Shown here: one piece after another, positions 8,445 through 43,646 of the stretch
Layout of the letters: each line of letters opens with the position of its first letter
How positions within the stretch are numbered: the first letter of the stretch is position 1
NCBI GenBank assembly: GCA_041658625.1
Contig: JBAZZW010000002.1
Coordinates: 344,299 to 408,298, forward strand
Direction: 5' to 3'
From: Actinomycetota bacterium
GTDB taxonomy: Bacteria > Actinomycetota > JAHEXW01
Length of the DNA: 64,000 nt
Notes under the pieces: generated by a model
What the model was told of the DNA's origin: nothing
Database searches by the model: none
What the model saw: the letters and a program-made list of their open reading frames with translations, nothing else
Program-made: the position numbers and the translations under genes

Positions 8445-8459
8445 AGGCAAGGAGAAAAG

Positions 8460-12169: not shown

Positions 12170-12423
12170 TGGCGGTCCGCCTTTGCACTAACATTACAGG
12201 TAGGCATTAAAATTCTGCCTTGTTCGTGATTTGCGAAGCGTATATTTGAGCCAACACTCAAATACAGGGAGCCGAGTAAGGGGGCACCCACCTGCGTGCG
12301 CACAGGGTTCAATTGCGCGGCGGACACGGCAAGGCGGAACCCTGCTAAATAGGAAATAATATATAAGAAACAAGAAACCCGCTTATGCGAGCCAAAGAAA
12401 CAATTAATAAAAAACCTGAACAG

Positions 12424-13199: not shown

Positions 13200-14514
13200 T
13201 CGGCCGCTCTCACTTCGCATGCGGCCCAGGCGGCTTGAAGACTTCGCCGGGCAGGAAGAAATTGTCGGGCAGGGCACCGTCTTACGTCAGGCAATCCAAG
13301 AAGACACCTTAAGTTCCGCCATTTTTTGGGGTCCCCCGGGCTGCGGCAAAACCACGCTGGCTGAGATAATCGCCGAAATGACGTCGGCGGAATTCGTGAA
13401 AATCAGCGCGGTTACGGCGACCGTCGGCGACGTGAGAAAGGTTATCGCGGCGGCCAGGGAGAGGCAAAAAGCATACGGCCGCCGTACGATCATGCTTCTA
13501 GACGAGGTCCACCGTTTCAACAAGGCTCAGCAGGACACCCTGTTACCGGCCGTTGAGGACGGCACGCTCATCCTTATCGGCACAACGACAGAAAACCCCT
13601 ATTTCGAAGTAAACTCGGCCCTGATATCCAGATCGCGAGTATTCCAGTTAAACGGGCTAAGAGACGGAGACCTTTCAGCCATCCTTAAAAGAGCGCTCAA
13701 GGACAATGAGAACGGCCTGGGGCGGGAGAAAGTCGTTTTGGACAAAGGGGCCGAGGAACACTTGATTAAAACAGCGGCCGGCGACGCAAGATCTCTTTTA
13801 AACGGGTTGGAGACGGCCGCGCTGGCGGCTCGTCCCGACGCGAAGGGGCGGAGACTGATTACCCTGGAAATCGCCGAAGACGCAATGCAGCGACGCGCCC
13901 TTTTGTACGACATGAAGGGCGAAGCTCATTACGATGTAGCCAGCGCGTTTATTAAAAGTATGCGAGGAAGCGACCCGCAAGCGGCTGTATATTGGCTGGC
14001 TGTTATGATTTACGGCGGCGAGGACCCGAAGTTTATCGCGCGCCGGATGATCATTTTCGCCAGCGAGGACGTGGGCAACGCCGACCCGATGGCGCTGGTC
14101 GTGGCGACGGCCACCGCTCAGGCCATGCAGAACGTAGGCTTGCCCGAGGCCCGGATAAATCTGTCGCAGGCGGCCATATATCTGGCGACCGCGCCAAAAA
14201 GCAACGCCTCCTACGCGGCCATAGACGCGGCCTTAAAGGATGTGGCCCAGGGACCTTTATCGCCGCCGCCCAAACACATCAGGAATGCGCCTCACCCGGG
14301 GATGAAAGAACAAGGATACGGCGTGGGGTATAAATATCCCCACAATTATCCCGGCCACGTCGTCGAGCAGGAATACCTGCCGCCGGAGCTGAAGGGACGG
14401 GAATACTACAAGCCGAGTGATTCCGGAGCGGAAGCCCTTATCAAGAAGCGAATGACTGACAACAAGTATGATAAAATCAAAGCACCGGACAAAGGATCCG
14501 GCGGTAAACCTTAA
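13174..14514 (+). CDS. rarA: replication-associated recombination protein A (AAA+ ATPase RarA/MgsA)
   Basis: Walker A GPPGCGKTT, Walker B LLDEVHRFNK, MgsA C-terminal domain. ATG 13219 is an alternative start that avoids overlap. Confidence 0.9.
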   Translation: MTPSTADTDRPLSLRMRPRRLEDFAGQEEIVGQGTVLRQAIQEDTLSSAIFWGPPGCGKTTLAEIIAEMTSAEFVKISAVTATVGDVRKVIAAARERQKAYGRRTIMLLDEVHRFNKAQQDTLLPAVEDGTLILIGTTTENPYFEVNSALISRSRVFQLNGLRDGDLSAILKRALKDNENGLGREKVVLDKGAEEHLIKTAAGDARSLLNGLETAALAARPDAKGRRLITLEIAEDAMQRRALLYDMKGEAHYDVASAFIKSMRGSDPQAAVYWLAVMIYGGEDPKFIARRMIIFASEDVGNADPMALVVATATAQAMQNVGLPEARINLSQAAIYLATAPKSNASYAAIDAALKDVAQGPLSPPPKHIRNAPHPGMKEQGYGVGYKYPHNYPGHVVEQEYLPPELKGREYYKPSDSGAEALIKKRMTDNKYDKIKAPDKGSGGKP

Positions 14515-14532
14515 AGAGGAGGCGAGCGGGAC

Positions 14533-14868
14533 GTGATCTATGTGCAACTGGCAGGCGCGGTGGCGTTGCTGGCGTTGGCTGTCTTGATTTCCGCTTTTGT
14601 TCCGGCGGCTTACCGTTTGAAGAATACCGTCGATTCCCTGGACGACATCCTCGGGAAGCTAAAAACAACAGTTGACGAGGTTAATGCTGAATTGGCTAAG
14701 GTAAACGAAACAACGGAATCCGTCCAGAAGGCCGTGTCCAGGATAGACAAAATCGCCAGCCTGCTTCAGGAAACAGTCTCTTCGCCGCTAATAAAGGTGG
14801 CCGGTTACGGGGCTGGTCTTGGCGGCGTCATTAAATCGTGGCGCGGCGGCTCGCGGAAGGGCAAATAA
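14533..14868 (+). CDS. DUF948-family membrane-anchored coiled-coil protein
   Basis: 111 aa, N-terminal TM then coiled coil. Confidence 0.5.
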   Translation: MIYVQLAGAVALLALAVLISAFVPAAYRLKNTVDSLDDILGKLKTTVDEVNAELAKVNETTESVQKAVSRIDKIASLLQETVSSPLIKVAGYGAGLGGVIKSWRGGSRKGK

Positions 14869-20578: not shown

Positions 20579-20676
20579 TATGCATAGGGTAAAATGCAAG
20601 CGTGCGCTTACTTACACGGCGTAGTCTTTGGGCGAAAGACAGGCGGACCGCGCTGCATAAGGAGGAACAGACTAAA

Positions 20677-21516
20677 GTGATTACCGGAACGACAAAAATA
20701 GTCGGTATTATCGGCGACCCGGTTGCCGGGTCGTTGTCTCCGCAAATGCACAACGCCGCTTTCTCCCACGACGGATTGGACTGGGTCTACGCCGCCTGGA
20801 AGGTATCGCAAGATGATCTGGCTGACGCGATCGCGGCGGTTAGGGCTCTAGGCATAGCAGGTTTAAACGTGACGATGCCCCACAAAGGACCGGTCATCAA
20901 GTATTTGGACAGCGTTGACGATGAAGCCTTGGCGATCGGGTCTGTCAACACCATCGTTAATACTCACGGTAGGCTTAAGGGTTACACAACAGACGGAGAG
21001 GGTTTCCGTCTTTCATTAAAAGACGCCGGATATGACCCAACCGGAAAAAAAGCAATCATAATAGGCGCAGGCGGGGCGGCCAGGGCGGTCGCCCGAAAGC
21101 TGGCCGAGAGACGGGCCGCGGTGGTCGACGTCGCCTGCCGGAATCAGGAAAGCGGGCGGAAGCTCGCGGATATCGTAAAGTCGGGCGGCGCGGAATCCAC
21201 TCAATATGACATCAATGAAGAAGCGGCGGCCCCGCTAAAGCGGGCCGATATGATCATAAACGCGACACCATTAGGCAAATACTCTTTAGACGACATAAAA
21301 TTCCTGGCGGACGGGCTCAATCCCGAACAATTCGTGGCCGACTTGAGCACCGTTCCTCCGCTCAGCGCATTCCTCGTCGCCGCCCAAGAACGAGGCTGCA
21401 CCGTCATGGGCGGTTTGGGCATGCTCGTCCGTCAGGGATCTTTATCTTATAAGCTGTGGACCGGCCTGGACGCGCCCTTGGACGTCATGCGCCGGGCGGT
21501 CGGTGAGGAAAAATGA
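20677..21516 (+). CDS. aroE: shikimate dehydrogenase
   Basis: IGDPVAGSLSP…NVTMPHK…GAGGAARA motifs. GTG 20677 after AAGGAGGA is the likely start (the track ORF begins at 20602). Confidence 0.9.
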   Translation: MITGTTKIVGIIGDPVAGSLSPQMHNAAFSHDGLDWVYAAWKVSQDDLADAIAAVRALGIAGLNVTMPHKGPVIKYLDSVDDEALAIGSVNTIVNTHGRLKGYTTDGEGFRLSLKDAGYDPTGKKAIIIGAGGAARAVARKLAERRAAVVDVACRNQESGRKLADIVKSGGAESTQYDINEEAAAPLKRADMIINATPLGKYSLDDIKFLADGLNPEQFVADLSTVPPLSAFLVAAQERGCTVMGGLGMLVRQGSLSYKLWTGLDAPLDVMRRAVGEEK

Positions 21517-23189
21517 GAGAAGGAAGGAAACAGCTCGGCGACCTGTTGGTCGAACGTGGCAAAATTACAGCCGAACAACTTGACGAGGCCTTGACCCGCC
21601 AGCGCGCCAATGGGGAACCGCTGGGGCAGATGCTGGTCGACTCCGGTTACATAACGGAAACGGACCTATTAAAGATGCTGGCCGAGCAGCTGGGGCTAGA
21701 TTTTGTCGACCTTACCGAATATAAGATCGACCTGTCGGCGGTCGCTATGCTGCCGCATAACGTCGCTAAGAAGAACCTGGTCCTGCCGGTGGGTTTCGAG
21801 GAGAACAAGCTGGTCGTAGCAACGGCCGACCCTACCAACGTGTTTATCTTCGACGACTTGAGGATTATGACTGGATTTGAGATAAAACCGGTTGTCGCCT
21901 CCAAGGAAGACCTTATCGGAGCGACCGAGCGTTTTGCCCAGAGCGAAGACGTTCTTGAGGAAGCGTCCAAGGGAGAGGAGACTTTTTCCGAAGCGCAGAC
22001 GGCGGCCAAGGAAGCGGAAGAAGCGGCCGAGGAAGCGCCGATCGTCAAGCTGGTTAACCTGATAATTAACCAGGCGGTCGAGGAACGGGCGTCGGATATT
22101 CATATAGAACCCCAGGAAGACGACATGAGGATCAGATATAGGGTGGACGGTGTTTTACACGAAGTCATGCGGAGTCCCAAGAAGATTCAAGCCGGTCTTA
22201 TATCAAGACTGAAGATCATGGCCGACATGAATATTGCCGAACGCCGGGTACCGCAAGACGGCCGGATCGGTCTGGTCGTCGGCGACCGCGCGGTTGATTT
22301 CCGGGTGGCCAGCCTGCCCAGCGTCTACGGAGAACAGATGGTTTTACGTATCCTGGAGAAGGAAAGCATCATGCTGGACCTGGAGGATCTGGGATTCTTC
22401 CCGGAAACGCTCGAGGTATTTCGCAAGGCCGTCGGCAAACCTTACGGAACGGTGCTGGTCACCGGTCCAACCGGCTCGGGCAAATCAACGACTCTATACG
22501 CCACTTTAAACGTCCTCAACGTGCCGGAGAAAAATATTATGACTATCGAGGACCCCGTTGAGTACCGCCTGTCGGGCATTAGCCAGATGCAGGTCAACCT
22601 GAAGGCGGGGATGACCTTCGCGGCCGGCTTAAGAGCGGTCTTGCGCGGCGACCCGGATTGCCTGCTCGTCGGCGAGATCCGGGACAGAGAGACCGCGCTG
22701 ATCGCCATAGAAAGCGCCTTAACCGGACATCTCGTTCTCTCGACGCTTCACACAAATGACGCTCCGTCAGCGGTGACCAGGCTAATTGAGATGGGCGTGG
22801 AACCGTTTCTGATAGCCTCGGCCTTGGATTGCGTGTTGGCCCAGCGGCTGGCCCGGCGTTTGTGTAAGTACTGCAAAGAAAAGCACGTTTTGACGGGCAA
22901 AGAGGTAAAGAACCTCGGTTTTCCCGCGGATGAAACTAAGAAATACGAGTTTTACAAACCGATCGGCTGTACCCGCTGCAACAACACCGGATATAAAGGC
23001 CGGATGGGCGTTCACGAGGTAATGTTAATGACGCCGACTGTCGGGGAGCTCGCCGTTAAGAAAGCGAGCTCGGATGAGCTTATGAGAAATGCTATCAAGG
23101 AAGGCATGAATACCCTGCGGCAAGACGGCTTCAACAAAGCTCTGGCTGGCATGACGTCGTTAGAAGAGGTTATTAGGGTGGTCGCTTAA
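21513..23189 (+). CDS. pilB: type IV pilus assembly ATPase PilB/GspE (copy 1) with N-terminal tandem MshEN motifs
   Basis: Walker A GPTGSGKST, Asp/His boxes, tetracysteine CKYC…CTRC. N-terminus KQLGDLLVERGKITAEQLDEALTRQ and PLGQMLVDSGYITETDLLKMLAEQ match the 24-residue MshEN c-di-GMP-binding motif. Confidence 0.9.
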   Translation: MREGRKQLGDLLVERGKITAEQLDEALTRQRANGEPLGQMLVDSGYITETDLLKMLAEQLGLDFVDLTEYKIDLSAVAMLPHNVAKKNLVLPVGFEENKLVVATADPTNVFIFDDLRIMTGFEIKPVVASKEDLIGATERFAQSEDVLEEASKGEETFSEAQTAAKEAEEAAEEAPIVKLVNLIINQAVEERASDIHIEPQEDDMRIRYRVDGVLHEVMRSPKKIQAGLISRLKIMADMNIAERRVPQDGRIGLVVGDRAVDFRVASLPSVYGEQMVLRILEKESIMLDLEDLGFFPETLEVFRKAVGKPYGTVLVTGPTGSGKSTTLYATLNVLNVPEKNIMTIEDPVEYRLSGISQMQVNLKAGMTFAAGLRAVLRGDPDCLLVGEIRDRETALIAIESALTGHLVLSTLHTNDAPSAVTRLIEMGVEPFLIASALDCVLAQRLARRLCKYCKEKHVLTGKEVKNLGFPADETKKYEFYKPIGCTRCNNTGYKGRMGVHEVMLMTPTVGELAVKKASSDELMRNAIKEGMNTLRQDGFNKALAGMTSLEEVIRVVA

Positions 23190-24869
23190 ATGAAGGAAAG
23201 CCGGAAACAATTGGGCGACTTGCTGGTCGCTCAAGGCGTAATCAAACAGGAGCAGTTGGACGAGGCCCTGAAGACGCAGAAGGAGAGCGGGGAGCCGCTC
23301 GGCCGCGTCTTGGTTAAGAGAGGGCTCGTCACCGAGGCCGACCTGTTAAGAATTCTGGCCAACCAGCTCGGTTTGGACTACGTTGACCTGAACGAATACA
23401 AGATCGATTTAAGCGCGGTGTCGCTGATTCCGGAAAGAATAGCCAAGAAAAATGTAGTCTTACCGATAGGATTCGAGGACGACAAGTTGATTGTGGCCGT
23501 AGCGAATCCGACGGACGTCTTTATTTTTGATGACCTAAGGATGATGACGGGATTCGAGGTCCGGCCGGTGGTCAGCACAAAAGAAGATATTCTGGCTTCA
23601 ATCAGTCGGTACGCCAGGGCGGACCAGCTGGTCGGCGAGGGGCTTGACGAGTTAACTCGCGAGGTGGCCGGCGAAGCCGAGGAAGAGGAATCTATCGCCG
23701 CGGCGATAGACGAAGCGCCGATCGTGAAACTGGCCAACTTGATTATCAACCAGGCCATAAACGATAGAGCCTCGGATATTCATATCGAACCGCAGGAGAA
23801 GGACGTTCGCGTCCGTTACCGCATAGACGGCGTTTTACACGAGATCATGACGCCGCCGAAGAGAGTTCAAGCCGGGTTGATTTCCCGCATCAAAATCATG
23901 TCGGACCTTAACATCGCGGAAAATCGCGTGCCGCAAGACGGCCGCATCGGCCTGAACGTTGCCGGGCGGGCTGTCGACTTACGGGTGGCGACGCTGCCGA
24001 CGGTTTACGGGGAAAAGATCGTCATGCGTATTCTGGAAAAGGAAAGCATCATGATCGACCTCAAAGACCTTGGTTTTTTACCTGACACCCTGGAGAGATA
24101 CCAGAGATCGTTTAAGAAACCGTACGGAGCCATCCTTATAACAGGACCGACCGGTTCCGGCAAAACGACGTCGCTGTACGCGGCGCTGAACGTGCTTAAC
24201 ACGATAGAGAAGAAGATCATTACGGTCGAGGACCCCGTGGAATACAAACTACCAGGCGTCATCCAGGTTCAAATCAACGCCAGGGTCGGCCTGACGTTCG
24301 CGGCCGCCCTAAGGTCTATATTACGCAACGACCCCGATATTGTAATGATCGGTGAGATACGGGATAGGGAGACAGCCCTGATCTCCGTTGAAAGCGCGCT
24401 GACGGGCCACCTGGTTTTAGCCACCCTGCATACCAATGACGCGCCGCAAGCCTTGACCAGGCTGACCGAGATGGGTATAGAACCATTCTTGTCAGCCTCG
24501 GCCGTCGATTGCGTCGTCGCTCAGCGATTGGCAAGAAAGCTCTGCAAATCCTGCAAAGAAGCTTATACGCCGGACGAGGAATCACTAAAGGCGGCGGGCT
24601 TTCCGTTCGAAAAAGGAGAGAAGCTGACATTTTATAAGGCGGTCGGTTGCGGAAAATGTAAGGGGAGCGGATACAAAGGGCGATTGGGGATTTATGAAGT
24701 AATGCTGGTCAGTGAGACGATTGAAAAGCTGTCGGTGGAACGGGCTTCGTCCGACGAAATCGGGCGACAGGCTGTCATAGAAGGCATGAGCACGTTGAAA
24801 GACGACGGTTATGAGAAAGTCAGGCAGGGGACGACAAGCTTGGAAGAGGTTCTGAGGGTCGTCGCGTAA
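23190..24869 (+). CDS. pilB: type IV pilus assembly ATPase PilB/GspE (copy 2, tandem paralog)
   Basis: 559 aa, collinear with copy 1 (~65% identity by eye). Walker A GPTGSGKTT, tetracysteine CKSC…CGKC, intact MshEN motifs (KQLGDLLVAQGVIKQEQLDEALKTQ). Confidence 0.9.
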   Translation: MKESRKQLGDLLVAQGVIKQEQLDEALKTQKESGEPLGRVLVKRGLVTEADLLRILANQLGLDYVDLNEYKIDLSAVSLIPERIAKKNVVLPIGFEDDKLIVAVANPTDVFIFDDLRMMTGFEVRPVVSTKEDILASISRYARADQLVGEGLDELTREVAGEAEEEESIAAAIDEAPIVKLANLIINQAINDRASDIHIEPQEKDVRVRYRIDGVLHEIMTPPKRVQAGLISRIKIMSDLNIAENRVPQDGRIGLNVAGRAVDLRVATLPTVYGEKIVMRILEKESIMIDLKDLGFLPDTLERYQRSFKKPYGAILITGPTGSGKTTSLYAALNVLNTIEKKIITVEDPVEYKLPGVIQVQINARVGLTFAAALRSILRNDPDIVMIGEIRDRETALISVESALTGHLVLATLHTNDAPQALTRLTEMGIEPFLSASAVDCVVAQRLARKLCKSCKEAYTPDEESLKAAGFPFEKGEKLTFYKAVGCGKCKGSGYKGRLGIYEVMLVSETIEKLSVERASSDEIGRQAVIEGMSTLKDDGYEKVRQGTTSLEEVLRVVA

Positions 24870-24914: not shown

Positions 24915-25970
24915 ATGCCGAAAATCGAAGAGTTGATGGAAACAGTCATGGCCAAGGACGCCTCCGACCTTCACCTCACGGCGGGTATCCCGCCAACCCT
25001 TCGGATCCATGGGAAGTTGGAACACATGGACAAACCCATCTTGGAACACGAAGACGTTATGGCTCTAGTCTACGAGATTCTCAACGACAGCCAGAGACGT
25101 CGTTTGGAGGCGGACCGCGAACTGGATTTGTCGTATGCTTACGAAGACAAGGCCCGATTCAGAATCAATGTTTACTGGCAGCGCGGCAACTTGGCCGCGG
25201 CGCTCCGTCTGATTCCGCCGGCGGTAAAGTCCCCGCGCGATCTGGGGTTGCCGCCGATCGTGGAGATGCTGGCCGCGAAACCTCGAGGTTTTATCTTGGT
25301 GACCGGGCCGACGGGCTGCGGCAAGTCGACCACGTTGGCGGCGATGATCAATATCATCAACCGGACCAGAAGCGAACACGTCCTGACCATTGAGGATCCG
25401 ATCGAGTTTATGCACAAACACGATAAGAGCATGGTCAATCAGCGGGAGGTTGGCGCCGATACCCATTCATTTTCCAGCGCGTTACGCCATGTACTTAGGC
25501 AGGACCCGGACGTTATTCTGGTCGGCGAGATGCGCGACCTGGAGACGATCTCCATCGCGCTGACGGCCGCGGAAACCGGCCACTTGGTTTTCGCCACCTT
25601 GCACACGCAGGACGCGCCTCAAAGCATCGAGCGTGTTATCGATGTTTTCCCGTCTCAACAGCAGCACCAGATTCGGATTCAGCTGGCCAGCACGCTGCAG
25701 GCGATTCTGGCCCAGCAATTGATTCCGGCCAAAGGAGGCGGCGAGAGAAAAGTCGCCGTCGAGGTCATGATGGCCACGCCGGCTATCAGAAACATGATCA
25801 GGGACGATAAGACACATCAGATAATCTCGGCCATGCAGGCGGGTTACAGCACAGGCATGCAGACCATGGATCAGGCGCTGGCAGCCCTCGTTAAAACGAA
25901 TCAGGTCACGTACGACGACGCTATGCAAAGGGCAATCGACCCTGACGTTTTCAAGAGACTGGTCGGGTAG
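24915..25970 (+). CDS. pilT: twitching-motility retraction ATPase PilT
   Basis: 351 aa with no N-terminal extension. GPTGCGKSTT, AIRNMIRD-type PilT signature. Confidence 0.9.
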   Translation: MPKIEELMETVMAKDASDLHLTAGIPPTLRIHGKLEHMDKPILEHEDVMALVYEILNDSQRRRLEADRELDLSYAYEDKARFRINVYWQRGNLAAALRLIPPAVKSPRDLGLPPIVEMLAAKPRGFILVTGPTGCGKSTTLAAMINIINRTRSEHVLTIEDPIEFMHKHDKSMVNQREVGADTHSFSSALRHVLRQDPDVILVGEMRDLETISIALTAAETGHLVFATLHTQDAPQSIERVIDVFPSQQQHQIRIQLASTLQAILAQQLIPAKGGGERKVAVEVMMATPAIRNMIRDDKTHQIISAMQAGYSTGMQTMDQALAALVKTNQVTYDDAMQRAIDPDVFKRLVG

Positions 25971-25980: not shown

Positions 25981-27201
25981 ATGGCGACAACATTCGCGTA
26001 TAAGGGTCGCGACGCATCCGGGAAAACGATTTCCGGAACGCTGGAGGGAGATAACGAGACTCAGGTGGCGGAGAGCCTTCGCCGGATGGGTTACTTGGTT
26101 AACTCCATAACTGCCGAAAAGGGCGGCCTGCAGATGCAAATCGGCGGGGGCTCCAAGCGGAGGAAAAGGGTTAAGAGCGGCGAGCTGGTCGTATTCACGC
26201 GACAGTTCGCGACGATGATCAACGCGGGTTTGCCGTTAGCCCGCTGTCTGGGGGTAATGTCGCAGCAGTCGCCTAATCCGGGAATGGCCGCGACCATCGA
26301 AGACGTGCTGCACGACGTCGAAGGCGGTTTGGCGCTGTCGAACGCCATGGCCAAGCACCCCAAGGTTTTCAACACGCTTTACGTAAGCATGGTCAAAGCG
26401 GGTGAAACCGGCGGTATATTGGACGAGGTCCTAACCAATGTCGCCGAGAACCTGGAGAAGAACGAAGAGATTAAAAGCAAGATAAAATCGGCCATGGCTT
26501 ACCCGGTGTTGATGTTCATCATGTCGATCGTCCTGGTCATTGTCATGTTGGTGTTTATCGTACCGGTCTTTACGGGGATGTTCGCGCAGCTAGGCGGGGA
26601 GCTGCCGCTGCCGACGCAGATACTTGTTAACTTAAGCGCTCTAATCAGTTCAACCTGGTGGTTCGGCATCCCGTTGACCATCCTGGCGATTTACGGAATC
26701 AGGAAATCTTTAAGCATCCCGGCGGTCAGGTTCAAATGGGACACCGTTAAACTGAGGATTCCCATCGTCGGTCCGGTTGTCAAACAACAGTCGGTGTCGA
26801 GGTTCGCGAGAACACTGGGGACCTTATCCAGCGCCGGCGTACCGATCCTAGAGGCGCTGGACGTTGTGGAGAATACCGTCGGAAACGCTTTGATTTCATC
26901 AGAAGTGGCCAAGATAGCGCTGGGGGTAAAAGAGGGACAGACGATTGCCCAGCCCCTCGGTAAGATAAAGGTCTTTCCGCCTATGGTCGTGCAAATGGTC
27001 GCCGTTGGAGAAGAATCGGGCGCCATGGACACGATGCTTATCAAAGTGGCTGAGTTTTACGACAAGGAGGTTGCGACGACCATCGAAGGGCTATCGTCGA
27101 TTCTCGAGCCGGTCATGCTTATCGGCGTAGGTTTGGTTATCGGCGGCATCCTGATATCTCTATACCTGCCGATGTTCAAACTGGCCAGTTTGATTAAATA
27201 A
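25981..27201 (+). CDS. pilC: type IV pilus platform protein PilC/GspF
   Basis: 406 aa. Two T2SSF repeats, 3-4 TM. Confidence 0.9.
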   Translation: MATTFAYKGRDASGKTISGTLEGDNETQVAESLRRMGYLVNSITAEKGGLQMQIGGGSKRRKRVKSGELVVFTRQFATMINAGLPLARCLGVMSQQSPNPGMAATIEDVLHDVEGGLALSNAMAKHPKVFNTLYVSMVKAGETGGILDEVLTNVAENLEKNEEIKSKIKSAMAYPVLMFIMSIVLVIVMLVFIVPVFTGMFAQLGGELPLPTQILVNLSALISSTWWFGIPLTILAIYGIRKSLSIPAVRFKWDTVKLRIPIVGPVVKQQSVSRFARTLGTLSSAGVPILEALDVVENTVGNALISSEVAKIALGVKEGQTIAQPLGKIKVFPPMVVQMVAVGEESGAMDTMLIKVAEFYDKEVATTIEGLSSILEPVMLIGVGLVIGGILISLYLPMFKLASLIK

Positions 27202-27311
27202 GAAAATTATCAAATAAACAAATAATTCTAAAGTCGACAGGCGCCGCGTCCGACAATCAATAGGAAAGAAAGATACAGGTTTATTAAGGCATATGGAGGG
27301 AGGTGACTCAA

Positions 27312-27743
27312 ATGCTAACGAAAATCCGCAAGATGTCAAGGCGGGAAGAGGGCTTCACTCTGATCGAACTCATGGTCGTTATTCTTATCATAGGTATCCT
27401 CATGGCTATCGCCATCCCGTCTTTCATCGCTGTACGCAACAGAGGTTATGCGTCAACCGCGAAGGCGATCCGTTCAACAGCTGTCAAGACAATGGAGTTG
27501 TACGGAGTCGACAACAGCGGCGACTATTCTGGAGCGACGGCCCTCGCCTTAGGCGCGTTGGAGAAGAGCATTCCTTTCCTGAATGCGGCTCCCGCCGCCG
27601 GTGATTTCAAATCGGCCGGTATGTCCGGATTAGCCGCTGACGCGTACACCATCACGGTTAACGGCCGTGACGGAAACACTTACACGGCAGTCAAGGCTGC
27701 CGGCCTGGCTGTTGTCTATAACACGAACGGCGTACCTGAATAG
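27312..27743 (+). CDS. pilA: type IV major pilin (prepilin, class III signal peptide)
   Basis: MLTKIRKMSRREEG|FTLIELMVVILIIGIL: prepilin cleavage/N-methylation motif G|FTLIE plus a hydrophobic helix. ATG 27312 is preferred over track GTG 27303 because of GGAGGGAGG RBS spacing. Confidence 0.85.
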   Translation: MLTKIRKMSRREEGFTLIELMVVILIIGILMAIAIPSFIAVRNRGYASTAKAIRSTAVKTMELYGVDNSGDYSGATALALGALEKSIPFLNAAPAAGDFKSAGMSGLAADAYTITVNGRDGNTYTAVKAAGLAVVYNTNGVPE

Positions 27744-27769: not shown

Positions 27770-27812
27770 TAAAAAAAGAGGCGGCGCGGAAAAAACCGCG
27801 CCGCCTCTTTAG
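27770..27812. terminator. strong GC-rich hairpin terminator after pilA (bidirectional character)
   Basis: aaaaaaa-GAGGCGGCGCGG-aaaaaa-CCGCGCCGCCTC-ttt: 12-bp perfect stem. A-tract 5' and T-run 3'. Confidence 0.7.
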
Positions 27813-27930: not shown

Positions 27931-29019
27931 GTGAACACGATGAACCGTTTGAACAGCATACGCAATAATGAATCGGGTTTTACGTTAACCGAGATCATGG
28001 CCGCCTCGGCCATCATTACAATAGGCATTCTAGGTATTATGATCGTGTTCAACTCCACCTTAAACACGCAAACAAACACAAAGGTCAGAACCCTGGCGAC
28101 GAATATCGCGACCGAGAAAGTGGAAGCCGCCAGGACGATCGCGTACGATACGCTGACGCAAGAATACCTGGCGGCCAATCTCGGAACGACCGCCACAAAA
28201 GGCGGCGTAACGTTTACTATTACATATACTGTGGCGTTTGTTGACGATCCTTCGGACGGCACTGGCACAGGCGATTTAAATCCTAACGATTTTAAAAATG
28301 TGCAGATTACCGTGGCTTGGACGAACCCTCAGCCTTCGTCCTCGGTCGTTATAGATACATTGATTAATAAGAACCCGGTCGCGCCGGCTAGCGCCAGCAC
28401 CGACACGACCGCGCCGGTTTGGCCTAACGCGGGTGTAGGCGTTCTGTCCGGGCGCGCGGAACAGACAACGCCAGGGCTGGGTATGTATATCCAATGGTCG
28501 CCAAACTGGGCCACGGACGCCAACGGCGTCGTCGGCTATCTAATATACCGCCAGCCGCCGGACGACACGAGCTACATGCTTATCGCTACGGTTGCACCGA
28601 GCGTGGGTTGGTTCCTGGACAATTATTATACGGCGGGTGGCTCGTACAATTTTTATGTCAAGGCCTTCGACGGCGCGGGCAATTTGAGCGGACCGTGTAA
28701 TATTGTGACGATTGTCGGTCCGGCGGATACGATTGCGCCCAGTATCCCCCTCAATGTAACCGGACAGGCTACCAGCCCGACGACGGGGACATTAAGCTGG
28801 TCGTTGGCAACGGACAACTCGGGCGTGGTCGATCACTACAACATATACAGAACGCATTCAGGCAATCCTTTCGGGAACACGCCTTATACGTCGAAAAGTT
28901 CCCCGCCGTTTAACGATACCGGACTTAGCACAGGCATTACTTACCAGTATTATATTGCGGCCGTCGATCCGACCGGCAATGAGGGCGGCAAGTCCACAAC
29001 CGTATCAATAACTCCCTAG
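27931..29019 (+). CDS. pilin-like protein with N-terminal prepilin signal and two fibronectin-III-like domains
   Basis: MNTMNRLNSIRNNESG|FTLTEIMAASAIITIGILGIM prepilin N-terminus. C-terminal repeats (…WSPNWATDANGVVGYLIYRQ…YVKAFDGAGNLSGP… and …LSWSLATDNSGVVDHYNIYRT…YQYYIAAVDPTGNEGG…) look like FN3 folds. Confidence 0.7.
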   Translation: MNTMNRLNSIRNNESGFTLTEIMAASAIITIGILGIMIVFNSTLNTQTNTKVRTLATNIATEKVEAARTIAYDTLTQEYLAANLGTTATKGGVTFTITYTVAFVDDPSDGTGTGDLNPNDFKNVQITVAWTNPQPSSSVVIDTLINKNPVAPASASTDTTAPVWPNAGVGVLSGRAEQTTPGLGMYIQWSPNWATDANGVVGYLIYRQPPDDTSYMLIATVAPSVGWFLDNYYTAGGSYNFYVKAFDGAGNLSGPCNIVTIVGPADTIAPSIPLNVTGQATSPTTGTLSWSLATDNSGVVDHYNIYRTHSGNPFGNTPYTSKSSPPFNDTGLSTGITYQYYIAAVDPTGNEGGKSTTVSITP

Positions 29020-29032: not shown

Positions 29033-29665
29033 ATGACATTCGGCAACAAGCACATCGGGAAAGCATATCGAGGAAAAGGACAAGCCGGTTACACGCTTCC
29101 GGAAGTGCTGGTTTCCGCGATCATCGGCGTGCTTCTCCTAACGGCCGTGTTCGGGATATTGCAGTCGGTGATGAGCAGTTATTACGTGCAAAACGCACAA
29201 GCCGAGGCGCAAGCCGAGGCGCAGTTCACGATGATGAGACTTGTCAAGGAAATCAGGCAAGCGGAGAAGCCGCTATTGGCTATATCCATAAATCCGGGCA
29301 GCGTTGAAACGCTGGCTTTTAAAGCGGATTTAAACAATGACGGAACGTCTGAAGCGATCCTTTACTCATATAACGGATACTTGCATAAGATTGTCAAACA
29401 AGTAAATACAACCGGAGTATATGATTTTACCGCTTCGCCGCAAGAGACGATAGCCTCGAATATCCGGAACAATTACAGCCAAACGCTCTTTACTTTTTAT
29501 GGAACCAGCCTGACAACGCCGCTTGATCCGACTAATCCGAGCGCCGATATTATTAATAAAACAAAACTAATAAAGATCAGAGTGGTAATCGACAAGGATG
29601 TGGCAAAACCGCCGGCGCCTATAGACTTGACGTCGGAAATCAAGCTACGCAATTTTGGCTACTAG
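29033..29665 (+). CDS. minor pilin / pseudopilin (PilW-like, prepilin N-terminus)
   Basis: …GKGQAG|YTLPEVLVSAIIGVLLLTAV class III signal motif. 210 aa. RBS GGGGAGGG. Confidence 0.65.
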   Translation: MTFGNKHIGKAYRGKGQAGYTLPEVLVSAIIGVLLLTAVFGILQSVMSSYYVQNAQAEAQAEAQFTMMRLVKEIRQAEKPLLAISINPGSVETLAFKADLNNDGTSEAILYSYNGYLHKIVKQVNTTGVYDFTASPQETIASNIRNNYSQTLFTFYGTSLTTPLDPTNPSADIINKTKLIKIRVVIDKDVAKPPAPIDLTSEIKLRNFGY

Positions 29666-29679: not shown

Positions 29680-31074
29680 ATGACACGCAAGAGAATTTTC
29701 AGTTTTGACGAGAAAGGTTCGGCCTTAATAGCGGCCATAGGCGTCATGATGGTACTGGACCTTTTCGCGGTCGCGGTGCTGGCCATTTCGGCAAGCCAAA
29801 TGACGTTGGCTACAACCGAAAGAAAGACAAACCAGGCATTCAATGTCGCCGAAGCGGGCTTTAACAATGCACTCTGGAAGATCGACAATATCGCCAACTA
29901 TGCTCCGGCTGAAAGCGCGCCTGATTACGGCTCCGTGTCAGGCGGCGATTATAAAATCGTCGTTACCGATGTCACAGGTACGACGAACCAGAAGAGGGTG
30001 GAAGTCACCGGCTACGTTCCGAATAGGTATCACTCCAATCCCGGAAGGCGAAAGATAGTGGCCATGGTTGAGGTGGCACCGAAGGTCTTAAGCTATGGCA
30101 TGTACGCATTTTCCTGGATCGACATCCAGGGGGCGACCGCCAGAACATATCTGGCGCCGCTGGATTATCGCGCCTCCGACGCCAAAGGCGGAGACATGGG
30201 CTCCAACTTTGATATCTTTTTCAACGACGCGGCCATAAGGTTGAATGAAAGAGGAACCCAGCAGGGCGAGCAAAATACTTATGACGCGCTTTTCGGCGTT
30301 CCGGCGGTGCCGATGGGAGATCTTATAACGGCGGGACCGACGGCCGAGGTCCACGCGGTAAATACGGTGGTAAATACGATCCAGGAGCTAAACGCCAAGT
30401 GCCAGTACGTCAAGATGGCCAGCATAAAACACATGAACCAGCCGATCACCTTCCCGACTTTGAATTTCGAGGGCGCCGGCGGCTACAGAGAAATGGCCCA
30501 GAACAACTTTACGAACGGTACAAAATATTGGGCGACCGAGCATTCCGGGTATTTCACCAAAGCGGATTTTACCGCCTTGTTCTCCGGCCGGAACAACGTC
30601 GAGCTGACGGGTATGATTTTTATCGACGGCGAAGTTGACCTTCCCAACAACAAGAACCTGACCATTACCAACGGCGGGCTGGTCATCAAGGACGATCCCA
30701 ATGACCCCAGTCAGGCGCTGTCGCTCGCCAATCGAGCGTCGCTTATAGTCAGACACTCGTCCGAAGCGAGCAAGGTCTTTCCCGGCTTGATCGTCTTCAC
30801 GACCGTGGGGAGCACGGCGTCCGTCGTTGATAGGGGAACGATGGAGATTGAAGGACTAGTATACTCAGAGAGAACTTATAGCGAATCCAACTCGACAGTG
30901 CGCATTAAAGGAGCCCTGCTGGCCAGCGGTACTTCTGCGGCGGCCAGTATAGTTAACATGAATGCCAGCATTATCATCCAGTATGACCCGAACGTCACGA
31001 ACATGTTAGGCTTAAAAACATTCGGCGACGTATTCGTAAAAAAGGTGACGAGCTGGCGCGAGGTTACGCCATAG
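29680..31074 (+). CDS. PilX-like pilus assembly protein (PilX N-terminal domain) with large C-terminal domain
   Basis: N-terminus GSALIAAIGVMMVLDLFAVAVLAISASQMTLATTERKTNQAFNVAEAGFNNALWKI matches the PilX_N family signature. 464 aa. Confidence 0.65.
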   Translation: MTRKRIFSFDEKGSALIAAIGVMMVLDLFAVAVLAISASQMTLATTERKTNQAFNVAEAGFNNALWKIDNIANYAPAESAPDYGSVSGGDYKIVVTDVTGTTNQKRVEVTGYVPNRYHSNPGRRKIVAMVEVAPKVLSYGMYAFSWIDIQGATARTYLAPLDYRASDAKGGDMGSNFDIFFNDAAIRLNERGTQQGEQNTYDALFGVPAVPMGDLITAGPTAEVHAVNTVVNTIQELNAKCQYVKMASIKHMNQPITFPTLNFEGAGGYREMAQNNFTNGTKYWATEHSGYFTKADFTALFSGRNNVELTGMIFIDGEVDLPNNKNLTITNGGLVIKDDPNDPSQALSLANRASLIVRHSSEASKVFPGLIVFTTVGSTASVVDRGTMEIEGLVYSERTYSESNSTVRIKGALLASGTSAAASIVNMNASIIIQYDPNVTNMLGLKTFGDVFVKKVTSWREVTP

Positions 31075-31171: not shown

Positions 31172-31513
31172 ATGGCAGATTGTATCTTTTGCCTGATTGC
31201 AGGCGGTGAAATACCAGCCGATATTATTTTTAAAGGGGTAAACGTTATCGCTTTCAGAGACATCCAGCCGATGGCCCCGACGCATGTTGTTATCATTCCA
31301 AAAAAACACATCAACCCAATGGAGGATCTGTCCGAGTCGGATATAGCAGTTATCCCGGAAATCTATATGGCGGCGCGAGCGATAGCTGCCGGAGAGGGGA
31401 TAGCGGAGAGCGGTTACCGTTTGCTTACCAACCACGGGCCGGACGCGGGCCAGGAAGTCGAACACCTTCATTTCCATCTTCTGGGCGGCCGCCGGCTGGG
31501 CGGTATTTGTTAA
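31172..31513 (+). CDS. HIT-family (Hint-like) nucleotide hydrolase
   Basis: Histidine triad EHLHFHLLGG; 113 aa. Confidence 0.85.
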   Translation: MADCIFCLIAGGEIPADIIFKGVNVIAFRDIQPMAPTHVVIIPKKHINPMEDLSESDIAVIPEIYMAARAIAAGEGIAESGYRLLTNHGPDAGQEVEHLHFHLLGGRRLGGIC

Positions 31514-31536
31514 CATGGATAAGGGATAGCTAGCCC

Positions 31537-34029
31537 ATGAAAGCGGTCATCATGGCCGGCGGAGAAGGCACCCGCTTACGGCCGCTCACCAGCAACCAAC
31601 CTAAACCCATGGTACCGGTATTGAACAAGCCGGTCATGGAGTATATTATCGAACTTCTTAAGAAACATGGCGTGACGGATATCGTCGCGACGCTGCAGTT
31701 TCTGCCTGCCATCATCAGGAACTATTTCGGCGACGGCAAAGACCTGGGCGTGGATCTTGCTTATAGCACCGAAGAAACGCCTCTAGGCACGGCAGGCAGC
31801 GTTAAGAAAGTCGAGGACTATCTCGACGAAACCTTCATTGTCATCTCGGGCGACGCGGTCACCAATGTCGATCTGACGGAAGCCGTCGCTTTCCACAAGG
31901 CCAACAAATCGGTCGCCACGTTGATATTGAAAAGCGTTGAGAATCCGCTCCAGTTCGGCGTGGTTATCACCGACGAAAGCGGCCGAATCCAAAGGTTTGT
32001 GGAGAAACCGAATTGGAGCCAGGTCTTCAGCGACACAGTCAACACAGGCATATACATCCTGGAGCCGAATGTCCTGAAGATGATTCCCGCCAATAAACCT
32101 TTCGACTTCAGCAAGGATCTGTTTCCGAAACTCTTAAAGGCCAAGAAGAGGATGTTCGGCTATGTTACCGAAGCTTACTGGCAGGACATCGGGAGCATAG
32201 AGCAATATATGCAGGTCCACCACGACATCCTCAAGCGGGAGACGGGCATCGAGCCGGAAGGGTTCAAGATCGGGCGCAGTATATGGGTCAACGGAGGAGC
32301 CAAGGTCGATCCTCTGGCTAAGATGAGGGGGCCGATCGTCATCGGCCGGAACGCAAAGGTTGAAGCGGGCGCCCGTCTAAATCCATACACGGTTATCGGC
32401 AATAACACGGTCGTCAAAGCCGGCTCTCTGGTCAGCCGGTCGGTAGTTTGGGAGAACTGCTATATCGGAGCGGGGGCCGAGCTTAGGGGCTGCACGATCG
32501 GCCGAACCTGCGATATTAAGAATAACGCCAGACTGGGGGAGGGCGTAGCCGTCGGTGACAACTGCACCATCGGCGAAAACGCCGTCATCAGCCCGAATGT
32601 GAGGATCTACCCGTTCAAAACGGTCGAAGCGGGGGCCGGCATCAGCAGCTCGATCATCTGGGAAACCAGGGGATTCAGGACTTTGTTCGGCCGGCAGGGA
32701 ATAGCGGGCTTAATCAATATCGACATCACGCCAAGGCTGGCGATGCGGATCGCCGTGTCGTATGGCACTGCTTTGCCCGCCGGGGCGACGGTCGCGGTCA
32801 GCTGCGACAACATCAGAGCCTGTGAAATCATGAAGAACAGCATTATCGCCGGTTTGAATTCAACCGGCGTTAACGTCTGGGACATGGATAACGGGCCTTC
32901 GGGAGCTAATCGCTACGCGATTATTGGCGACCATCTGGCCGGAGGCGTCGACATCCGCCTGATGCACGACGACATCCAGTCCGTGGAGATGGATTTCTTC
33001 GACTCCAACGGCATCAACATAGGCGAAGACATGCAAAGCGCCATTGAGAAATACTTTTACCGGGGCGATTTCAGACGGGCTTTTTACGATGAAATGGGCG
33101 AGGTTATCTTCCCTGTTCGGGCGACAGAAACCTATATCAACAACATTTTAGAACATGCTGACCTGGGCTTAATCGGGAGATCAAGACTTAAACTAGTCGT
33201 GGATTACGGATTTGGCCGGGGCATAAAAGTCGGACCGGACATCCTGGCCAGGCTAGGGCTGGCCGTCATCTCGCTAAACGGCATTCCCGGCAGCGATCGG
33301 TCGGCCATGACTAAAGACGACATGGAGAGGGCTTTGCGGCAGGTATCGACCAGCGTCCGCGCCTTAAAGGCCGATCTAGGCGTATTGATTGACGGGCCGA
33401 GCGAACGAATCACCCTGGTGGACGAGAAGGGTCAGCGCATAAACCATTCGGTTGCCCTAATGATGATGCTTAAGATGGTCTGCGCTAAAGCGAAACAGGG
33501 GACCGTAGTTTTGCCGATGAGCGTGACTCAAATAGCAGACGATATCGTCGCGGTAAGCGGATGCGATGTTAAAAGGGTCGGCATCAGCTCGGCGGCGCTA
33601 ATGGAAGCCGCTCTGGAAGAACACGCGATTTTTGCCGGCGCCGAAGGCGGAGGCTATATATTTCCGGAGATTGTTCCCGCCTATGCCGCCTTACCAAGCT
33701 TGGTAAAGTTGCTGGAAATTATGGCCGGATCCAAGAAACCGCTCAGCCAGCTGGCCGGATCTGTTCCCAGGTATCACGTGCTGCACCGGACAGAGGTATG
33801 CGCCTGGGATCGCAAAGGCTACGTCATGCGGCAGTTAATCGATTCGATCAAAGGGAAGAAGGTCGAGCTGATAGACGGCATAAAGGTTTATAGTCCCCGC
33901 GGTTGGGCGTTGATGCTGCCGGATCCCGTCGACCCGGTCTGCCACATCTACGTGGAAGGCGACACCGAGCAGCGCGCGGAGGCGCTAGCCGCTAAATACG
34001 CCGCGTTGATCAGAAAATTCAGGTCTTGA
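31537..34029 (+). CDS. fusion protein: sugar-1-phosphate nucleotidyltransferase + left-handed beta-helix + phosphomannomutase/phosphoglucomutase-like domains
   Basis: N-terminus MKAVIMAGGEGTRLRPLT (NTP-transferase G-x-G-T-R-L), hexapeptide-repeat middle, C-terminal alpha-D-phosphohexomutase-like region. 830 aa. Confidence 0.8.
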   Translation: MKAVIMAGGEGTRLRPLTSNQPKPMVPVLNKPVMEYIIELLKKHGVTDIVATLQFLPAIIRNYFGDGKDLGVDLAYSTEETPLGTAGSVKKVEDYLDETFIVISGDAVTNVDLTEAVAFHKANKSVATLILKSVENPLQFGVVITDESGRIQRFVEKPNWSQVFSDTVNTGIYILEPNVLKMIPANKPFDFSKDLFPKLLKAKKRMFGYVTEAYWQDIGSIEQYMQVHHDILKRETGIEPEGFKIGRSIWVNGGAKVDPLAKMRGPIVIGRNAKVEAGARLNPYTVIGNNTVVKAGSLVSRSVVWENCYIGAGAELRGCTIGRTCDIKNNARLGEGVAVGDNCTIGENAVISPNVRIYPFKTVEAGAGISSSIIWETRGFRTLFGRQGIAGLINIDITPRLAMRIAVSYGTALPAGATVAVSCDNIRACEIMKNSIIAGLNSTGVNVWDMDNGPSGANRYAIIGDHLAGGVDIRLMHDDIQSVEMDFFDSNGINIGEDMQSAIEKYFYRGDFRRAFYDEMGEVIFPVRATETYINNILEHADLGLIGRSRLKLVVDYGFGRGIKVGPDILARLGLAVISLNGIPGSDRSAMTKDDMERALRQVSTSVRALKADLGVLIDGPSERITLVDEKGQRINHSVALMMMLKMVCAKAKQGTVVLPMSVTQIADDIVAVSGCDVKRVGISSAALMEAALEEHAIFAGAEGGGYIFPEIVPAYAALPSLVKLLEIMAGSKKPLSQLAGSVPRYHVLHRTEVCAWDRKGYVMRQLIDSIKGKKVELIDGIKVYSPRGWALMLPDPVDPVCHIYVEGDTEQRAEALAAKYAALIRKFRS

Positions 34030-34035
34030 GAACAG

Positions 34036-35439
34036 ATGATTAAATTCGGCACCGACGGCTGGCGCGATGTTGTCGCCGACGGTTTCACTATTACAAATCT
34101 GAGGCTGGTTACGCGCGGCATATCGGCTTATATAAAGACAAGCGCCGTCGAGCCGCGGCTGGTCGTCGGGTACGACTGCCGGTTCATGGGACGGGAGTTC
34201 GCCGCCGCCGTGGCGGATGAAATGTCGGTCAACGGCGTCAGCGTGATACTCGGTAACGAGGCTTATCCCACGCCAACCGTCGCTTATTCGGCGAAAGCGC
34301 TCGGAGCAGACGGGGCGATTATGCTTACGGCCAGTCATAATCCCTATTATTACAACGGACTTAAGTTCATTCCCGAGTACGCCGGACCGGCGACGGAGGA
34401 GATTACCACCGCCATAGAGGAGGCGATAACTTCAGTCGAGGGCCGCGCCAACCTCGAAGCAAGCGGCCGCCAGGCCACCGCGTCGATAGAGAATAAAGAT
34501 TTAAGCACTGATTATATGAAGGCCTTGGTCGACTACCTGGACATTGACACGATTGCCGGGAGCGGATTAAAGACCGCCATAGATCCTTATCACGGGTCAG
34601 GGCGCAGGCTGATGCCGGAGCTCGCCCGGACGGCCGGATTGGACGCCACGGTCATCAGAGACAATGAAGATCCGCTCTTCGGGGACACCATGCCTGATCC
34701 GTCAGAGAAAAACCTGGGCGAGCTGAGAGAGCTTGTGGTCGGCAAGAAACTGGATGTCGGCCTGGCGCTGGACGGCGACGCCGACCGTTTTGGGATAATC
34801 GCCGACGACGGGTCATACCTGACACCGAACCAGGTGGTCGCGTTGCTCCTCGGGCACATGGTAAGAAACCGGGGCGCGGCCGGAATCGTCGTCAGGACCG
34901 TAGCGACGACGCATCTGCTAGACGCCATGTCGGCCAAGATGGGGCTAAAGATTGTGGAAACCCCTGTAGGATTCAAGCACGTTGGACTGTTGATGAGAGA
35001 GGAGAAGGTGATAATCGGCGGGGAAGAGAGCGGGGGCTTAAGCGTGCTCGGACATATTCCCGAAAAGGACGGCTTGCTGGCGGACATGCTTGTCGTCGAG
35101 ATGATAGCTAAAGAATCAAAACCGCTGTCAACCATCTGGAAAGACCTGGTTGACGAGTTCGGACACTACTATAACGAAAGGCTGGATATACCATATCCGT
35201 CCGATAAGATAAAAATACTTTTTGATTCTTTGAAGGATAAGACGCCGGACAAAATCGGCGGCCTGAAAGTAGAGAGGATTGAGACAATCGACGGCGTCAA
35301 ATTGATCTTAGCCGGTAACGCTTGGCTGCTGATACGACCTTCCGGCACAGAGCCGCTTGTCAGAGCATACATAGAAACCAAGTCAGCCGGCGACATGCAA
35401 GCGCTGAAAACCGCGGCCAGGGAATTGTTATCGGCATGA
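34036..35439 (+). CDS. phosphomannomutase/phosphoglucomutase (alpha-D-phosphohexomutase)
   Basis: Active-site TASHNP, Mg loop DGDADR, sugar-binding GEESGG. 467 aa. Confidence 0.88.
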   Translation: MIKFGTDGWRDVVADGFTITNLRLVTRGISAYIKTSAVEPRLVVGYDCRFMGREFAAAVADEMSVNGVSVILGNEAYPTPTVAYSAKALGADGAIMLTASHNPYYYNGLKFIPEYAGPATEEITTAIEEAITSVEGRANLEASGRQATASIENKDLSTDYMKALVDYLDIDTIAGSGLKTAIDPYHGSGRRLMPELARTAGLDATVIRDNEDPLFGDTMPDPSEKNLGELRELVVGKKLDVGLALDGDADRFGIIADDGSYLTPNQVVALLLGHMVRNRGAAGIVVRTVATTHLLDAMSAKMGLKIVETPVGFKHVGLLMREEKVIIGGEESGGLSVLGHIPEKDGLLADMLVVEMIAKESKPLSTIWKDLVDEFGHYYNERLDIPYPSDKIKILFDSLKDKTPDKIGGLKVERIETIDGVKLILAGNAWLLIRPSGTEPLVRAYIETKSAGDMQALKTAARELLSA

Positions 35440-39582: not shown

Positions 39583-39991
39583 GGGTACGGTCAAGAAATA
39601 TGCGGACAAACAGGTCATATTCGAAGAAGGCGACCGAGGAGACAGGATGTACGTTGTCGTGTCCGGCTATGTGAGGATCTACCGGACGCGGGGCGGAAAG
39701 AACATTGATTACGGGATTATCGGACCCGGGGAATTTTTCGGAGAAATGGCGATGTTCGCCGAACACAAGCGGAGCGCGTCCGCGCAAGCCAAAGGCTTGA
39801 CCGAGCTGTCGGTCATCGACGTAGACAATTTTTTAGGCAGAGTCAGGGACCCGCTGGTTCTTAACGTAATCAAGAAGCTTTCTGAAAGAATAAGGGAAAT
39901 CGACGACCGCATCGAAGGTTTGATAATGCAGGATCAGGTCCGGAAGGAACATTTAAGCAACCTTATCACCCACAGTAGAAGGATCTACTAA
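39569..39991 (+). CDS. stand-alone cyclic-nucleotide-binding domain protein (no DNA-binding HTH)
   Basis: 140 aa. GEFFGEMAMFAEHKRSASAQA CNB signature. Overlaps the cyclase gene by 14 nt (operon). Confidence 0.75.
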   Translation: MSPDRGTVKKYADKQVIFEEGDRGDRMYVVVSGYVRIYRTRGGKNIDYGIIGPGEFFGEMAMFAEHKRSASAQAKGLTELSVIDVDNFLGRVRDPLVLNVIKKLSERIREIDDRIEGLIMQDQVRKEHLSNLITHSRRIY

Positions 39992-43615: not shown

Positions 43616-43646
43616 AAACAGGGAAACGGGATTAAGGAGGAAACGT

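Follow-up and report, generated by a model that had tools for sequence, protein, structure and literature searches.

To our knowledge, a single homohexameric PilB per machine serves as the extension motor in the type IV pilus systems described so far. The window analysed here, a 64-kb stretch (64,000 nucleotides) of contig JBAZZW010000002.1 from an uncultivated lineage of the Actinomycetota, carries two adjacent pilB genes, pilB1 and pilB2, whose products are termed B1 and B2. The pair is an ancient, retained and lineage-specific duplication in situ of the extension motor. The single-copy PilBs of Geobacter metallireducens and Geobacter sulfurreducens (5TSG, 5TSH and 5ZFR), Myxococcus xanthus and Chloracidobacterium thermophilum are built like B1 and B2, with an N1D/MshEN domain, a linker, an N2D and a C-terminal domain bearing a zinc site. 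They were about 50% identical to B1 and B2 over the full length, had the same catalytic residues and gave the best sequence and fold matches. The organisms concerned have one pilB per pilus operon, whereas here two paralogues stand before one pilT and one pilC. Moreover, motif I of the binding module for cyclic di-GMP (c-di-GMP) starts with Arg or Lys in the single-copy PilBs but with Gln in B1 and B2. Binding of c-di-GMP by the N-domain of Chloracidobacterium PilB (CtPilB) is documented (PMC6957770).

MshE of Vibrio cholerae (5HTL) binds one c-di-GMP through two 24-residue motifs and a 5-residue spacer, which together form a 53-residue module (PMC5013675). B1 and B2 resemble MshE in this module and in its key Leu, Gly and Gln positions (PMC5013675). 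However, the first positions of the two motifs are Arg and Arg in MshE and Gln and Pro in B1 and B2, position 11 in motif I of B1 is Lys, and MshE belongs to the MSHA pilus, whereas the present locus encodes a different pilus type. PilF of Thermus thermophilus is likewise an extension ATPase with multiplied c-di-GMP-sensing GSPII/MshEN modules and was a strong sequence match; its sensor domain is three-fold in one polypeptide, whereas here the whole gene is doubled and two sensors are carried on two motors. The PilF motifs tolerate a first residue other than Arg, and the PilF module GSPII-C, whose motif II begins with Pro, binds c-di-GMP at approximately 500 nM (PMC11731258).

PilT and PilU, homohexameric tandem paralogues from this superfamily, are likewise encoded side by side and act on one pilus machine (PMC6668835; PMC6762196). 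They act on the retraction side and are widespread in Proteobacteria, whereas B1 and B2 are extension ATPases of one small actinobacterial lineage. According to Denise et al., only two system-specific ATPase duplications, PilB/PilT and PilT/PilU, are recognised in the type IV filament superfamily, and rarer ones are merely speculated upon (PMC6668835). More than one assembly ATPase per genome is found in Clostridium perfringens (PilB1/PilB2), Nanosynbacter (PilB1/PilB2) and Haloferax (PilB1-C1/PilB3-C3). There, every PilB is paired with a PilC of its own, usually at a separate locus, whereas the two PilBs of the present operon have a single PilC between them. Binding of c-di-GMP by C. perfringens PilB2 is stated in PMC6958937, which cites Hendrick 2017. 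A full-text literature search found no tandem pilB-pilB pair sharing one pilC. Taken singly, B1 and B2 are ordinary additions to the PilB family, and the unusual feature is the arrangement; the tandem pair is unusual, yet made wholly of known parts.

The gene pilB1 (21513..23189, forward strand) encodes a protein of 558 aa and pilB2 (23190..24869, forward strand) one of 559 aa. The initial annotation had claimed two collinear full-length PilB paralogues, and both open reading frames were recovered at exactly these positions. The two genes are separated by 0 nt, with the TAA stop of pilB1 directly abutting the ATG of pilB2. The upstream gene is aroE, encoding shikimate dehydrogenase (20602..21516, forward strand; Pfam Shikimate_dh_N/SDH_C), which precedes pilB in all related loci and whose stop codon overlaps the pilB1 start as ATGA. 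Because the pilB genes abut (0-11 nt in the core lineages), pilB1 and pilB2 are almost certainly co-transcribed and translationally coupled, together with pilT, pilC and the pilin set.

The assignment of both products was based on Pfam, NCBIfam and PDB matches and, for B1, on the fold of an AlphaFold2 (AF2) model. The Pfam T2SSE domain (PF00437) scored 473.2 bits in each protein, and the MshEN domain (PF05157) scored 73.5 bits in B1 and 76.7 bits in B2. The top NCBIfam family was the type IV-A PilB equivalog TIGR02538, with 659.5 bits for B1 and 667.9 bits for B2, just below the cut-off of 675.65. The GspE model TIGR02533 gave lower scores of 609 and 618 bits, respectively. The best PDB sequence match of B1 was Geobacter PilB (E = 4.9e-168; approximately 1e-165 to 1e-168 for full-length Geobacter PilB), with Thermus PilF and Myxococcus PilB as other strong matches. 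The AF2 model of B1 had a mean predicted local distance difference test (pLDDT) score of 76.6, and its best Foldseek matches were the Geobacter PilB structures 5zfr and 5tsh, with E values of approximately 1e-48 and target-normalised template modelling (TM) scores of 0.75-0.78. Both proteins are therefore PilB-type, type IVa pilus extension ATPases as judged by their sequences.

The catalytic motifs were located in both proteins. Walker A is GPTGSGKS in B1 (residues 318-325; 22464..22487, forward strand) and GPTGSGKT in B2 (residues 319-326, within pilB2). The Asp box is TIEDPVE in B1 (344-350) and TVEDPVE in B2. The atypical Walker B with the catalytic Glu is DPDCLLVGEIRD in B1 (380-391) and DPDIVMIGEIRD in B2, which have the common pattern DPDxxxxGEIRD, and the His box is TGHLVLSTLHTN in B1 (404-415) and TGHLVLATLHTN in B2, with the common pattern TGHLVLxTLHTN. 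The zinc cysteine pairs are CKYC (451-454) and CTRC (486-489) in B1, and CKSC (452-455) and CGKC (487-490) in B2. Such a tetracysteine zinc site is specific to the PilB/GspE clade, and PilT is without it. The arginines in QDGR, D(F/L)RV and (V/I)(L/M)RIL of B1 and B2 are equivalent to R257, R271 and R286 of G. metallireducens PilB, the roles of which have been described (PMC5424180). Every catalytic motif was intact in the window pair and in 19 B1 and 15 B2 orthologues (n = 34). The intact Walker A, Asp and His boxes and tetracysteine motifs proposed in the initial annotation were thus present in both proteins, and the inactivating substitutions that it had named as counter-evidence occurred neither in the window pair nor in the orthologues. 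A pseudogene or inactivated copy was ruled out on these grounds, and the B2 variant GPSGCGKT still satisfies GxxGxGKT. Judged by these motifs, neither copy lacks any part of the catalytic machinery of a hexameric PilB/GspE motor.

The distribution of the pair was explored in 80 loci, which were fetched and re-annotated for adjacent pilB-pilB genes, and further members were obtained from a protein-database search. The relatives in the species-representative genome collection were metagenome-assembled genomes (MAGs) of uncultivated Actinomycetota. Adjacent pilB-pilB genes occurred in only three of the 80 loci (L002, L003 and L012), which were the closest relatives, with 74-86% identity per copy. 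The remaining re-annotated loci, about 75 of them in the same context, had one pilB, except an Armatimonadota MAG (L038), the only other multi-PilB locus of the 80, in which two PilB-like genes (104-1930 and 7977-9686) were non-adjacent and lay about 6 kb apart. Two more assemblies with the tandem pair were confirmed, namely L083 and the deeper-branching L082, in which the gap is 65 nt, so that the pair was seen in at least five other assemblies (L002, L003, L012, L082 and L083). The protein pairs P0001/P0023, P0010/P0027 and P0012/P0032, in each of which the B1-type and the B2-type match come from contigs of equal length, suggest further tandem pairs.

Distance-based trees were calculated by neighbour-joining with Kimura correction from 549 columns with 100 bootstraps. 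Pairwise alignment and phylogeny had been proposed in the initial annotation as checks on the two copies. Over the full length, B1 and B2 had 62% identity and 82% positives with a single one-residue gap (BLASTP), and the B1-type and B2-type sequences formed two sister clades. The bootstrap values were 99 for the joint clade, 100 for core B1, 68 for inclusive B1 and 88 for B2. The sister group of the whole pair was single-copy; its locus (L084) has the order aroE-pilB-pilT-pilC and identical synteny. The presence of sister clades together with a single-copy relative in the same synteny indicated that the duplication arose in place, before these lineages split. One locus in the same context (L004) has one B2-type gene, which represents either the loss of B1 or a long-branch artefact of neighbour-joining with Kimura correction. 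A different route to a larger motor set in the same phylum is found in the Nocardioides/Kribbella-type loci, where an extra PilT-like gene often lies upstream of a single pilB (pilT'-pilB-pilT-pilC; L011, L014-L016, L018-L020, L023, L030, L032, L033, L035, L036, L039, L072 and L075).

The divergence between the copies was compared with that among orthologues. In orthologue comparisons, the nonsynonymous distance (dN) was 0.10-0.25 and the synonymous sites were saturated (proportion of synonymous differences, pS, of about 0.75). This low dN at saturated synonymous sites indicates strong purifying selection on both copies, although dN/dS is not quantifiable because the synonymous distance (dS) is saturated. 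The nucleotide identity of the paralogues in a sliding window was 40-74% all along the gene. A recent duplication or gene conversion was ruled out by the clean orthologue clades and the lack of a conversion tract in the sliding-window identity. Relative to the single-copy relatives, the mean BLOSUM62 score per site was 2.96 for B1 and 2.97 for B2, and the asymmetric rate expected of one fast copy was accordingly not found. Of 221 positions invariant in the single-copy relatives, 10 were changed in the core B1 consensus and 13 in the core B2 consensus. Only four differences were fixed between the full clades, all of them conservative (D106N, I225V, T313A and L385M), so strong type-II functional divergence was likewise not found.

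Among the domains, N2D was the most conserved between B1 and B2 (77% identity), and the linker at 146-175 was essentially unconserved (13%). Regional divergence was mildly complementary; B2 was more derived near Walker A, and B1 in the zinc subdomain and at 501-520. B1 carries K275Q. In most B2-clade proteins, Walker A is GPSGCGKT or GPAGCGKT, whereas the B2 of the window has the canonical GPTGSGKT, and the otherwise invariant first Arg of AERRVPQDGR (R245) is Thr, Asn or Ala in most core B2 proteins and Asn in the B2 of the window. This observation covered the B2 orthologues P0020, P0021, P0024, P0027-30, P0032 and P0035 and the gene at 9659-11362 of L012. The long co-retention of the copies, the purifying selection on both and their mildly complementary divergence by region agree with the sub-functionalisation suggested in the initial annotation, but do not demonstrate it.

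Each protein contains a predicted MshE-type c-di-GMP-binding module of 53 residues at residues 7-59 (21531..21689 in B1 and 23208..23366 in B2, both on the forward strand). In both, the 24-residue motifs lie at residues 7-30 and 36-59 and are separated by exactly five residues. In B1, motif I is QLGDLLVERGKITAEQLDEALTRQ, the spacer is RANGE and motif II is PLGQMLVDSGYITETDLLKMLAEQ; in B2, these are QLGDLLVAQGVIKQEQLDEALKTQ, KESGE and PLGRVLVKRGLVTEADLLRILANQ. Two MshEN motifs per protein had been claimed earlier (for B1, LGDLLVERGKITAEQLDEALTRQ and LGQMLVDSGYITETDLLKMLAEQ at residues 8-30 and 37-59), and both are present, but the two motifs together form one site per protein. NCBIfam NF053729 scored 73.8 bits in B1 and 71.0 bits in B2 against a cut-off of 38, and the isolated N-domains matched MshE 5HTL with E values of 3e-22 (B1) and 1.8e-23 (B2). 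The N-domains were also alignable with those of Geobacter and Myxococcus PilB, MshE and PilF. The Pfam MshEN match spans residues 60-146, that is, the C-subdomain and not the binding motif at 7-59. Positions L2, G3, G10, L17, L21 and Q24 were kept in each of the four motifs of B1 and B2. In the AF2 model of B1, this region forms four helices, at 8-14, 20-33, 37-43 and 49-59, with pLDDT values of 75-83. Position 1 of motif II is Pro36, which is allowed by the relaxed [RKPN] search motif and is also found in motif II of PilF GSPII-C. Therefore, c-di-GMP binding by both N-domains is a well-founded prediction from their sequences.

The module was retained in both clades. Across five lineages per paralogue, NF053729 scored 68.4-80.4 bits for B1 and 68.1-78.8 bits for B2 against the same cut-off. 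Since these ranges overlap, a loss of the c-di-GMP motif in one paralogue was not found. The ligand-contact positions were kept in both clades, with the exception of Gly10 of motif II, which is Lys in the L012-type sub-lineage of B1, and the B1 clade had slightly more departures than the B2 clade at single motif positions. Differential c-di-GMP gating of the two motors, as proposed in the initial annotation, found no support in the sequences, because both clades keep the motif with equal hidden Markov model scores (68-80 bits). Such retention is not automatic, since the c-di-GMP motif is degenerate in the Nocardioides-type PilBs, in three aligned members of which (L014, L018 and L033) the LG...Q pattern is gone. 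A predicted MshEN-type c-di-GMP control of pili would thus have been maintained in a monoderm actinobacterial lineage, while the motif decayed in the Nocardioides-type PilBs.

A mechanism can be proposed from these results and from known systems. An ancestor of this Actinomycetota lineage would have duplicated pilB in place within aroE-pilB-pilT-pilC-pilins, and both copies would have been kept as working ATPases. The binding of c-di-GMP at residues 7-59 of each protein may promote an extension-competent state, by analogy with MshE, C. perfringens PilB2, Thermus PilF and Chloracidobacterium PilB. In the least certain step, B1 and B2 would each assemble into a homohexamer of its own, and the two would alternate in docking on a shared PilC/PilM platform; these homohexamers may be specialised for different regimes of c-di-GMP affinity, load, speed or partner binding. 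On the extension side, the pair would then correspond to PilT/PilU on the retraction side. The reading preferred by analogy is that two specialised homohexamers take turns on a single PilC/PilM platform, although it is held tentatively, with a probability judged to fall just short of even. Homohexamers were preferred because all known motors of the superfamily are homomeric and because PilT/PilU provides a precedent. If the pair has shared one platform over such a deep divergence, it would be a natural system for motor exchange at PilC/PilM.

Several observations weigh against specialised homohexamers under c-di-GMP control. The inter-subunit catalytic residues are identical in B1 and B2 and N2D is the most conserved domain, which favours cross-compatibility, and no sequence feature shows that B1 and B2 avoid co-assembly. 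The basis of any specialisation is not visible, as just the four conservative differences are fixed. The genes pilM and pilD and genes for GGDEF proteins or diguanylate cyclases were absent from the 64-kb window in a tblastn and motif scan. In the binding module, position 1 of motif I is Gln7 (after Lys6) in both proteins, outside the [RKPN] set of the relaxed search motif (PMC5013675) and the R/K/L set of the extended consensus (PMC11731258), and motif I of B1 has Lys at the hydrophobic position 11. The binding of c-di-GMP is therefore predicted and not certain. Earlier alterations of Arg9, Asp12 and Gln32 in MshE seemingly shifted the affinity no more than fivefold (PMC5013675), and Gln7 lowers the certainty on affinity rather than on c-di-GMP binding as such. 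Finally, the organism is known only from metagenomes; the practical value of the pair is limited by the uncultivated state of these organisms and by its individually ordinary parts.

The strongest alternative, which the initial annotation did not consider, is a mixed B1/B2 hexamer, for example an alternating one, made from one mRNA, in which each paralogue is individually insufficient. The genes are 0-11 nt apart with a fixed order in every lineage seen, and both copies were kept in every complete core-lineage locus. Co-expressed duplicated homo-oligomers tend to cross-assemble by default, and the parts best conserved between the paralogues are precisely the inter-subunit catalytic residues and N2D. 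The derived changes are complementary as well, with R245 replaced by Thr or Asn and GPSGCGKT present in most orthologues on the B2 side, and K275Q and changes of the zinc subdomain on the B1 side. However, we know of no heteromeric motor in the PilB, GspE or PilT families. PilT and PilU make separate rings, each copy keeps every residue needed to work alone, and the locus with one B2-type gene in the same context evidently manages with that gene. A mixed hexamer is considered somewhat unlikely, and B1 and B2 as obligate partners in a heteromeric extension ring, for example of an alternating 3+3 type, are considered unlikely. If this is true, the PilB/GspE/PilT secretion-ATPase superfamily would gain its first heterohexameric motor, and one ring would combine two kinds of c-di-GMP sensor and two slightly different active sites (canonical GPTGSGKS versus GPSGCGKT in most B2 orthologues). 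The pair thus offers a natural system for asking if duplication can make a ring ATPase of this family heteromeric.

It is quite improbable that one copy serves a second filament or pilin set elsewhere or has c-di-GMP-dependent signalling as its main role. The documented multi-PilB organisms all have a separate system for each PilB (PMC11623550; PMC6491452; PMC6958937), and M. xanthus PilB has a signalling role in exopolysaccharide regulation (PMC5544727). The location of pilM and pilD outside the window implies that more pil genes are present elsewhere in the genome, and a related locus (L012) has two pilA-like genes. Nevertheless, both pilB genes lie in one operon upstream of a single pilC, a second pilC or pilin cluster was not seen in any related locus, and the full catalytic motifs in both proteins argue against a pure sensor. 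The different pilins proposed for the two motors in the initial annotation were similarly unsupported by the locus, which has a single pilC, a single pilT and only one candidate major pilin. It is highly improbable that the second copy is plainly redundant, serves dosage or is an assembly artefact: the same architecture and motifs and the very few fixed differences would suit redundancy, but redundant duplicates would not usually remain intact while their identity falls to 62%, and the orthologues of each copy are separately conserved; an artefact or strain collapse is excluded by the recurrence of the pair in independent assemblies of different studies and by its low nucleotide identity.

The gene order of the locus is alaS-ruvX-mltG-HAD phosphatase-aroE-pilB1-pilB2-pilT-pilC-prepilin-hairpin-pilin-like genes. 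The two extension motors are followed by one retraction ATPase, as the initial annotation had noted; this pilT (24915..25970, forward strand, 351 aa) scored 487.6 bits with TIGR01420 against a cut-off of 319. The single platform protein PilC (25981..27201, forward strand, 406 aa) matched Pfam T2SSF twice and the NCBIfam PilC/GspF models. The candidate major prepilin (27303..27743, forward strand) has an N_methyl motif and the leader ...MSRREEG|FTLIELMVV. Directly 3' of its gene is a perfect 15-bp GC-rich hairpin (27775..27810, not assigned to a strand) with A-runs upstream and a short T-run, which looks like a terminator or attenuator between pilA and the minor pilin genes. In L012, two adjacent pilA-like genes (13800-14207 and 14383-14814) were observed, compared with one in the window.

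The next gene (27931..29019, forward strand) encodes a pilin-like protein of 362 aa, which begins with a prepilin motif and has a fibronectin type III region at its C-terminus. This 'modular pilin' is kept in L083 and L012 at the equivalent position. It is followed by a minor pilin-like protein of 210 aa (29033..29665, forward strand), which has an N_methyl motif and is kept in relatives. The last gene of the pilin block (29680..31074, forward strand) encodes a conserved protein of 464 aa with an N-terminal hydrophobic segment and without a Pfam or NCBIfam match. Its homologues in the same position had 62% identity in L083, 56% identity in L012 and weak similarity in L084, and it is possibly a pilus tip or priming component. 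After this gene, the window continues at 31172-35439 with a HIT protein, an 830-aa nucleotidyltransferase-phosphomutase fusion and a phosphomutase. In the corresponding region of L083 (17087-19665), the 481-aa gene is followed by a short open reading frame and then pilM (PilM_2/FtsA). Since pilM and pilD are missing from the whole 64 kb, the pil cluster appears to be split in the genome of the window.

An Rfam scan detected no c-di-GMP riboswitch in the window; only an S-adenosylmethionine (SAM) riboswitch (196-303), 6S RNA (12209-12344) and a thiamine pyrophosphate (TPP) riboswitch (43454-43575), all on the forward strand, were found. The TPP riboswitch precedes thiM (43647-44450), thiE (44440-45090) and thiC (45065-46381), and hence the long open reading frame on the opposite strand at 43632-44768 is probably not a gene. 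A cyclic nucleotide monophosphate (cNMP)-binding domain is fused to an adenylate/guanylate cyclase domain in a gene (38521-39582, forward strand) that lies some 8 kb downstream of the pilus cluster. The next gene encodes a stand-alone cNMP-binding protein (39569-39991, forward strand), and a cyclic-mononucleotide link to the pilus is possible.

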